Source: Escherichia coli
GTDB lineage: Bacteria; Pseudomonadota; Gammaproteobacteria; Enterobacterales; Enterobacteriaceae
DNA length: 64,000 nt
Assembly: GCF_036507355.1 (NCBI RefSeq)
Contig: NZ_AP027877.1
Direction: 5' to 3' (one strand)
In this document: piece after piece, positions 29,079 through 29,733 of the stretch
Layout of the letters: the number at the start of each line of letters is the position of its first letter
How positions within the stretch are numbered: the first letter of the stretch is position 1
The notes under the pieces: generated by a model
The model's database searches: none
Seen by the model: only the letters and a program-made list of their open reading frames with translations
Told to the model about the DNA's origin: nothing
Made by a program: the position numbers and the translations under genes

Positions 29079-29345
29079 ATGGACATTAACAACAAAGCCC
29101 GCATTCATTGGGCATGCCGCCGTGGTATGCGCGAACTCGATATTTCAATCATGCCGTTTTTCGAACATGAGTACGACAGCTTAAGCGATGACGAAAAACG
29201 CATCTTTATTCGTCTGCTGGAATGTGACGATCCGGACCTGTTCAACTGGCTGATGAATCACGGTAAACCGGCCGATGCAGAACTGGAAATGATGGTCCGA
29301 CTCATCCAGACACGGAACCGGGAACGTGGTCCTGTGGCAATCTGA
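29079..29345 (+). CDS. sdhE: FAD assembly factor SdhE (YgfY/CptB)
   Basis: 88-aa [31 protein letters not shown]. Confidence 0.9.
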
Positions 29346-29733
29346 TTTGCGCGTCTCCTGGCGCGCACAGTGGCTTTCCTTGCTGATTCATGGGCTGGTT
29401 GCCGCTGTTATTTTACTCATGCCCTGGCCGCTCAGTTACACCCCGTTATGGATGGTGTTACTTTCGCTGGTGGTGTTTGATTGCGTTCGCAGCCAGCGGC
29501 GTATTAATGCTCGCCAGGGGGAAATTCGCTTGTTGATGGACGGGCGTTTGCGTTGGCAAGGGCAGGAGTGGAGCATCGTCAAAGCACCGTGGATGATTAA
29601 GAGCGGCATGATGCTGCGTTTACGTTCTGATGGCGGTAAACGGCAACATTTATGGCTGGCAGCCGACAGCATGGACGAAGCCGAATGGCGGGATTTACGG
29701 CGGATTTTGTTGCAACAAGAGACGCAAAGATAA
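29326..29733 (+). CDS. ygfX: Inner-membrane protein YgfX (CptA)
   Basis: 135-aa ORF overlapping sdhE 3' end by 20 nt. Confidence 0.85.

Follow-up and report, generated by a model that had tools for sequence, protein, structure and literature searches.

The overlapping gene pair at positions 29079 to 29733 of the window, meaning the whole 64,000-nucleotide stretch of Escherichia coli DNA that was analysed, is very probably sdhE-ygfX, a housekeeping operon of the E. coli chromosome. The genomics of the pair fit a housekeeping operon better than a toxin-antitoxin (TA) module. As a locus, it is already known and ordinary, its proteins being the same as those of K-12 with nothing new about them. 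The two genes and their nearest neighbours are the following:

29079..29345, + strand: sdhE (ygfY/cptB) coding sequence, 88 aa, ATG start, TGA stop (ORF list)
29326..29733, + strand: ygfX (cptA) coding sequence, 135 aa, GTG start, TAA stop (ORF list)
27856..28836, - strand: neighbouring gene ygfZ (ORF list and Pfam/NCBIfam)
29773..30294, - strand: neighbouring gene fldB (ORF list and Pfam/NCBIfam)
30406..31302, + strand: neighbouring gene xerD (ORF list and Pfam/NCBIfam)

Alignment to K-12 sdhE and ygfX, the check proposed by the first-pass annotation, returned 100% protein identity for both SdhE (MG1655 b2897) and YgfX (b2896). Together with the Pfam and NCBIfam matches, this result bears out the naming of the pair as sdhE-ygfX (cptB-cptA), and the sizes of 88 and 135 aa and the 20-nt overlap that had been read from the sequence also hold, the former being the same in the ORF list and the latter corresponding to positions 29326-29345, common to both ORFs. 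RefSeq annotates the identical two coding sequences with the identical 20-nt overlap. SdhE gives a full-length match to the Pfam profile Sdh5 (PF03937, 90.8 bits for a cut-off of 27) and aligns over residues 1-88 of 88 with the NCBIfam equivalog NF008130 (198.4 bits, cut-off 120). YgfX aligns over residues 2-131 with positions 1-132 of the 133 in the Pfam profile Cpta_toxin (PF07254, 169.1 bits, cut-off 27.3); NCBIfam contains no model for it. Given these scores, sdhE and ygfX are not a chance pair of ORFs. Compared with the K-12 operon (b2897-b2896; ygfY-ygfX, cptB-cptA), both proteins, the 20-nt overlap and the GTG start are alike, the neighbours ygfZ, fldB, xerD, dsbC and recJ are shared, and the differences are of nucleotides only: 8 in the 936-nt ygfZ-fldB interval, of which five lie in the intergenic sequence upstream of sdhE, one in sdhE and two in ygfX. 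The three that fall within coding sequence are all silent.

The function of SdhE is well documented. The K-12 protein, identical to the one encoded here, promotes the covalent attachment of FAD to SdhA and FrdA: SdhE binds the flavoprotein subunit and, in an autocatalytic reaction with a quinone-methide mechanism, FAD becomes linked to the active-site histidine (PMC5773532, PMC9557727). The sequence matches those of PDB entries 1x6i, 6c12 (SdhA-SdhE) and 6b58 (FrdA-SdhE) with E values of 8e-59 to 2e-51, the matched E. coli SdhE having been crystallised free (1X6I/1X6J), with SdhA (6C12) and with FrdA (6B58), and the AF2 model contains five helices. The RGxxE motif, which flavinylation requires, reads RGMRE (residues 15-19), and 25 paired homologues show no variation at R14, R15, G16 and E19. 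With a full-length profile match, the RGxxE motif and a sequence as crystallised, SdhE itself shows no difference from the SdhE/Sdh5/SDHAF2 family (PF03937). SdhE, a small cytoplasmic protein, uses its RGxxE face to bind SdhA and FrdA and promotes the linkage of FAD to their active-site histidine, and this flavinylation renders succinate dehydrogenase and fumarate reductase active. The first-pass annotation had described the locus as a small regulatory module; it is indeed a gene pair, but the word regulatory does not suit it, since SdhE is an enzyme-assembly (flavinylation) factor and not a regulator.

The pair is a core, single-copy locus in E. coli. Of 5426 complete E. coli genomes, 5425 contain the 964-nt region with at least 90% identity, the median being one copy, in agreement with the core-genome status initially assigned to it. 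Among 80 Enterobacteriaceae loci, the order ygfZ / sdhE-ygfX / fldB was found in all 78 that reach ygfZ. Pairwise Nei-Gojobori comparisons against 11 species, from which the codons of the overlap were excluded, gave low dN/dS values for sdhE (0.02-0.07) as well as for ygfX (0.04-0.16), indicative of strong purifying selection on both. Neither SdhE nor YgfX matches a PADLOC defence model. No integrase, transposase or other mobile-element gene lies beside the pair in any locus inspected, the only integrase-family gene in its vicinity being the core recombinase gene xerD.

The same organization extends to distant relatives. When 1.84 billion cluster representatives were searched exhaustively with HMMER, only 133 clusters were recovered at E <= 1e-3, and the YgfX family is therefore narrow. 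Eleven representatives with 27-40% identity to YgfX were placed in their genomic context by retrieving the encoding contigs through exact-protein look-up. A Sdh5-family gene lies directly upstream of ygfX in 10 of the 11, and nine of these ten pairs overlap (by 20, 20, 14, 26, 20, 20, 20, 20 and 20 nt), the tenth (L095) having a 30-nt gap. The sole orphan encodes the YgfX-family protein P0209 (34% identity; L093:1136-1579), has no sdhE upstream and lies 115 nt from a divergent gene coding for a 340-aa protein. Distant contexts with enough flanking sequence are again core, with ygfZ, fldB, xerD, dsbC and recJ. In one of them (L094:525-2712), sdhE-ygfX sits beside a convergent gene for a 556-aa flavoprotein with FAD_binding_2 and Succ_DH_flav_C domains (NadB/SdhA-like). 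Most members of the SdhE family outside the gamma-proteobacteria, including mitochondrial SDHAF2, are without a YgfX partner (PMC5042078).

Metagenomic sequences also contain SdhE-YgfX fusions of 166-217 aa with both Pfam domains (P0002, P0003, P0005, P0008-P0010, P0013 and P0022), which are 86-100% identical to YgfX, have differing junctions and belong to clusters of one or two members. A fusion produced by programmed frameshifting was considered and rejected: the junction points vary and the clusters are singletons or nearly so, which points to sporadic indels or assembly errors.

TA genes are typically patchy in their distribution, often multi-copy and linked to mobile elements, traits that are typical without being strictly defining. 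Type IV systems are defined by a toxin and an antitoxin that share a target without binding one another. Applied to the pair under study, a true type IV module would consist of membrane-located YgfX (CptA) inhibiting the polymerisation of FtsZ and MreB, and of SdhE (CptB) counteracting this effect on the same targets, an interpretation that we consider improbable. It originates from a published E. coli study, as relayed in two later papers, in which overexpressed YgfX caused growth arrest and lemon-shaped cells and bound FtsZ and MreB, with rescue by YgfY (Masuda et al., 2012, PMID 22239607, via PMC8621075, PMC3985639). It also finds support in the Pfam family name Cpta_toxin, in the layout of two adjacent, overlapping genes on one strand, as expected of a TA pair, and in a distant pair of A. 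baumannii whose products acted as toxin and antitoxin when overexpressed (PMC8132199). The first-pass annotation was correct in recording that the pair has been described both as a flavinylation factor and as a TA-like module. The TA half of that description has been disputed by work on two other genera. In Serratia, the Fineran laboratory saw no TA phenotype, and the direct binding of SdhE to YgfX there contradicts the definition of type IV (PMC3985639). The Shewanella pair failed all TA criteria: its proteins displayed neither toxicity, nor rescue, nor FtsZ/MreB binding, even when expressed in E. coli (PMC8621075).

Genome comparison likewise argues against a TA module. The typical genomic behaviour of TA genes is not what is seen for sdhE-ygfX, which is present in 5425 of 5426 genomes at a median of one copy, with fixed synteny, vertical inheritance, purifying selection on both genes, no match to PADLOC models and no mobile-element context in the loci inspected. 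Moreover, the flavinylation function of SdhE is fully sufficient and structurally explained. A contrast is provided by CbtA/CbeA (YeeV/YeeU), a type IV system that likewise comprises two genes, one of them coding for a small protein reported to act on FtsZ/MreB. CbtA/CbeA genes reside in cryptic prophages and are multi-copy, whereas sdhE-ygfX belongs to the core genome in a single copy, keeps its synteny and evolves under purifying selection; in addition, and unlike in CbtA/CbeA, the supposed antitoxin has an enzymatic-assembly role of its own and a direct interaction of the two proteins has been reported. The naming of the pair as the TA system CptA/CptB is published but contested, and goes back to overexpression phenotypes. 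YgfX is probably not a true toxin.

The two genes of the pair are superimposed in the following segment:

29326..29345, + strand: dual-coding overlap GTGGTCCTGTGGCAATCTGA, 20 nt, shared by both ORFs

GTGGTCCTGTGGCAATCTGA holds the last seven codons of sdhE, including the stop, and the first seven of ygfX, the ygfX frame being the sdhE frame +1. Its conservation was surveyed in one genome per species, in 80 Enterobacteriaceae loci whose YgfX is 71-99% identical to that of the window. All 80 species have an sdhE running from ATG to TGA, a ygfX starting at GTG and an overlap of exactly 20 nt. In an alignment of 79 sequences, 90% of the positions are invariant in the overlap vs. 40-63% in the surrounding coding sequence. 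Third codon positions of sdhE are invariant at five of six sites inside the overlap vs. 7 of 82 outside (Fisher p=1e-4), and those of ygfX at five of six inside vs. 4 of 40 over the 120 nt that follow (p=5e-4). Within the overlap, the third codon positions of sdhE are the second codon positions of ygfX, and the middle T of the ygfX GTG never varies across the 80 species, even though changing it would be synonymous for Arg83 of SdhE. At the protein level, homologues with as little as about 30% identity keep the YgfX N-terminus MVLWQxxLRVS, and residues 8-11, just past the overlap, are preserved in those that are 27-57% identical. In the AF2 model, residues 2-8 form a beta strand of the soluble domain (pLDDT about 94). 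Taken together, the invariance, the conserved N-terminus and the modelled N-terminal strand show that both frames are translated through the overlap.

According to these comparisons, the overlap is real, functional and selected. A mere annotation artefact, in which YgfX would start downstream (e.g., at TTG 29347 or ATG 29419) and the genes would be simply adjacent, could be argued from the weakness of GTG as a start codon and from the weak, poorly spaced Shine-Dalgarno-like sequence upstream of ygfX, but it is extremely improbable and was rejected in view of a GTG that is invariant in 80 of 80 species although its middle T is synonymous in the Arg codon of sdhE, of the constrained synonymous sites of sdhE (5/6 vs. 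7/82), of an N-terminus kept down to about 30% identity and confidently modelled as a strand of the soluble domain, and of distant relatives whose ygfX likewise begins inside sdhE, with overlaps of 14-26 nt.

YgfX is predicted with high confidence to span the inner membrane by two transmembrane helices and to possess a PH-like domain. The AF2 model, computed from a 38-sequence alignment (mean pLDDT 94.7, pTM 0.77), begins with a strand (residues 2-8) and continues with two long helices (12-31 and 36-62), followed by a beta domain of six strands and, at the C-terminus, a helix (118-134), and hydropathy peaks at about residues 25 and 45 coincide with the two long helices. According to the positive-inside rule, the basic stretch RSQRRINAR that follows the second helix would place both termini and the beta domain in the cytoplasm. 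YgfX has no solved relative; a Foldseek search of the model against the PDB returned nothing significant (best E 0.06), and no Pfam match was found beyond PF07254, the family to which all 38 diverse homologues belong. Because of this null Foldseek result and the lack of a Pfam link, PH-like is used here as a description of the fold, and the resemblance of YgfX to membrane-anchored PH-like (bacterial PH) domain proteins is one of fold only, with no claim of homology.

How YgfX relates to SdhE has been studied in two other genera. In Serratia, sdhE and ygfX are co-transcribed, SdhE and YgfX interact, YgfX multimerises, and the operon is regulated by RsmA, RsmC and FlhDC (PMC5042078). The two genes are also co-transcribed in Shewanella, and no SdhE-YgfX interaction was found there (PMC8621075). 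We modelled the E. coli pair with AF2 as a single SdhE-(GGGGS)6-YgfX chain, using a 25-row genome-paired alignment drawn from diverse loci. SdhE and YgfX each fold well in this chain (block pLDDT about 80-92), with a disordered linker between them; read from its pTM and pLDDT, the run gives a pTM of 0.44, the docking is not confident, and the result speaks neither for nor against a defined SdhE-YgfX interface.

In the proposed model, YgfX would most likely be a membrane-bound partner of SdhE and could, as a functional consequence, serve as a membrane dock or modulator for it. Because ygfX starts at a GTG inside sdhE in the +1 frame, its translation most likely depends on that of sdhE and is less efficient. 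A more specific version, tentative and rather doubtful in our own estimation, holds that YgfX, instead of being a toxin, may be a membrane receptor of gamma-proteobacteria which, through its cytoplasmic PH-like domain, docks SdhE at the inner membrane together with the SdhA/FrdA flavinylation intermediate, and that the conserved overlap of 14-26 nt may fix the SdhE:YgfX ratio through translational coupling.

Candidate signals for the expression of sdhE-ygfX were sought in and around the pair:

29038..29043, + strand: candidate -10 hexamer TACAAT of an sdhE-ygfX promoter, within block AAAAACACGTTACAATAG (conservation)
29070..29075, + strand: Shine-Dalgarno-like AGGAAG upstream of the sdhE ATG (read from sequence)
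29313..29324, + strand: purine-rich CGGAACCGGGAA, weak candidate ribosome-binding site just upstream of the ygfX GTG, inside sdhE
29737..29766, strand not assigned: 7-bp inverted repeat TGACGGC ... GCCGTCA with a 16-nt loop (read from sequence)

Transcription of the operon would start in the 242-nt divergent spacer between ygfZ and sdhE. Block AAAAACACGTTACAATAG is conserved in 14 Enterobacteriaceae, and a consensus promoter scan of 28700-29900 found no full sigma-70 site, so that the proposal of a promoter comes down to the conserved TACAAT block, which we take as a lead to a putative -10 element. Upstream of sdhE, CAGGAA is conserved in the intergenic alignment of 14 species, and the Shine-Dalgarno-like duplex with the anti-SD is estimated at -4.3 kcal/mol. 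CGGAACCGGGAA is nearly invariant in the 80 species; because the same nucleotides also encode SdhE residues, a role as ribosome-binding site of ygfX can only be inferred. Folding of the junction RNA (29286-29365) was no better than that of shuffled sequences (z=-0.56) and gives no support to a structured coupling element. At the other end, the inverted repeat occupies the 39-nt convergent spacer between ygfX and fldB and may act as a weak bidirectional terminator. The terminator scan of 28700-29900 did not report this repeat because it has no T run, and returned only two intragenic terminator-like matches, which is the chance level. Finally, no Rfam RNA family was found in or beside the pair in a scan of 27500-30800.

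On the ygfZ side of the divergent spacer, a conserved candidate promoter of ygfZ was observed on the - strand, with TTGCAT (28903-28898), a 16-nt spacer and TACCAT (28881-28876); it lies inside blocks CTAATGGTAAAAGAGC and TGCAAG, invariant in 14 Enterobacteriaceae, and was missed by the consensus scan. Downstream of ygfZ, positions 27796-27872 give a sub-threshold Rfam match to naRNA4, which is REP-element-like (37 bits for a gathering score of 59.5), and K-12 carries about 90 nt more near this point.

At a larger scale, collinearity between the window and K-12 is limited to positions 2293 to 36535 and ends just after lysS. At the junction where collinearity stops lies an IS1 transposase ORF (36551..37054, - strand), followed by actS (37481..38260), the gene for tRNA-Gly(CCC) (38339-38412) and an integrase gene (38547..40178). 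The contents of the island beyond the integrase gene were read from the best-matching annotated genome, where it encodes an ABC-three-component system (DUF2326) and two ars (arsenic-resistance) clusters, together with ETT2 remnants, ygeH among them. The window has no match to any part of K-12 3005500-3033614 (from ygeW to idi), and the segment 36535-64000 looks like an IS1-associated deletion combined with a glyU-integrated island. At the opposite end, about 2.2 kb between mscS and argO (76-2292) are missing from K-12 and, in matching genomes, encode a C4-dicarboxylate TRAP transporter substrate-binding protein and a hypothetical protein; when 5426 complete E. coli genomes were queried with 1-2400, only 57 reached a coverage of at least 80%. 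Inside the collinear part, about 118 nt (25049-25167) stand in place of about 1 kb of K-12 (3045101-3046122) containing the putative oxidoreductase gene ygfF, which seems to be absent from this strain.

Considering the linkage to sdhE, the dual-coding overlap, the purifying selection, the core synteny and the PH-like domain, annotation pipelines should class sdhE-ygfX among complex II assembly operons rather than among TA modules. The residual interest of the locus lies in the real role of YgfX and in the validity of the 'CptA toxin' label that is spreading through TA databases. Should YgfX prove to be a membrane receptor for the flavinylation intermediate, cofactor attachment would be coupled to assembly onto the membrane subunits.
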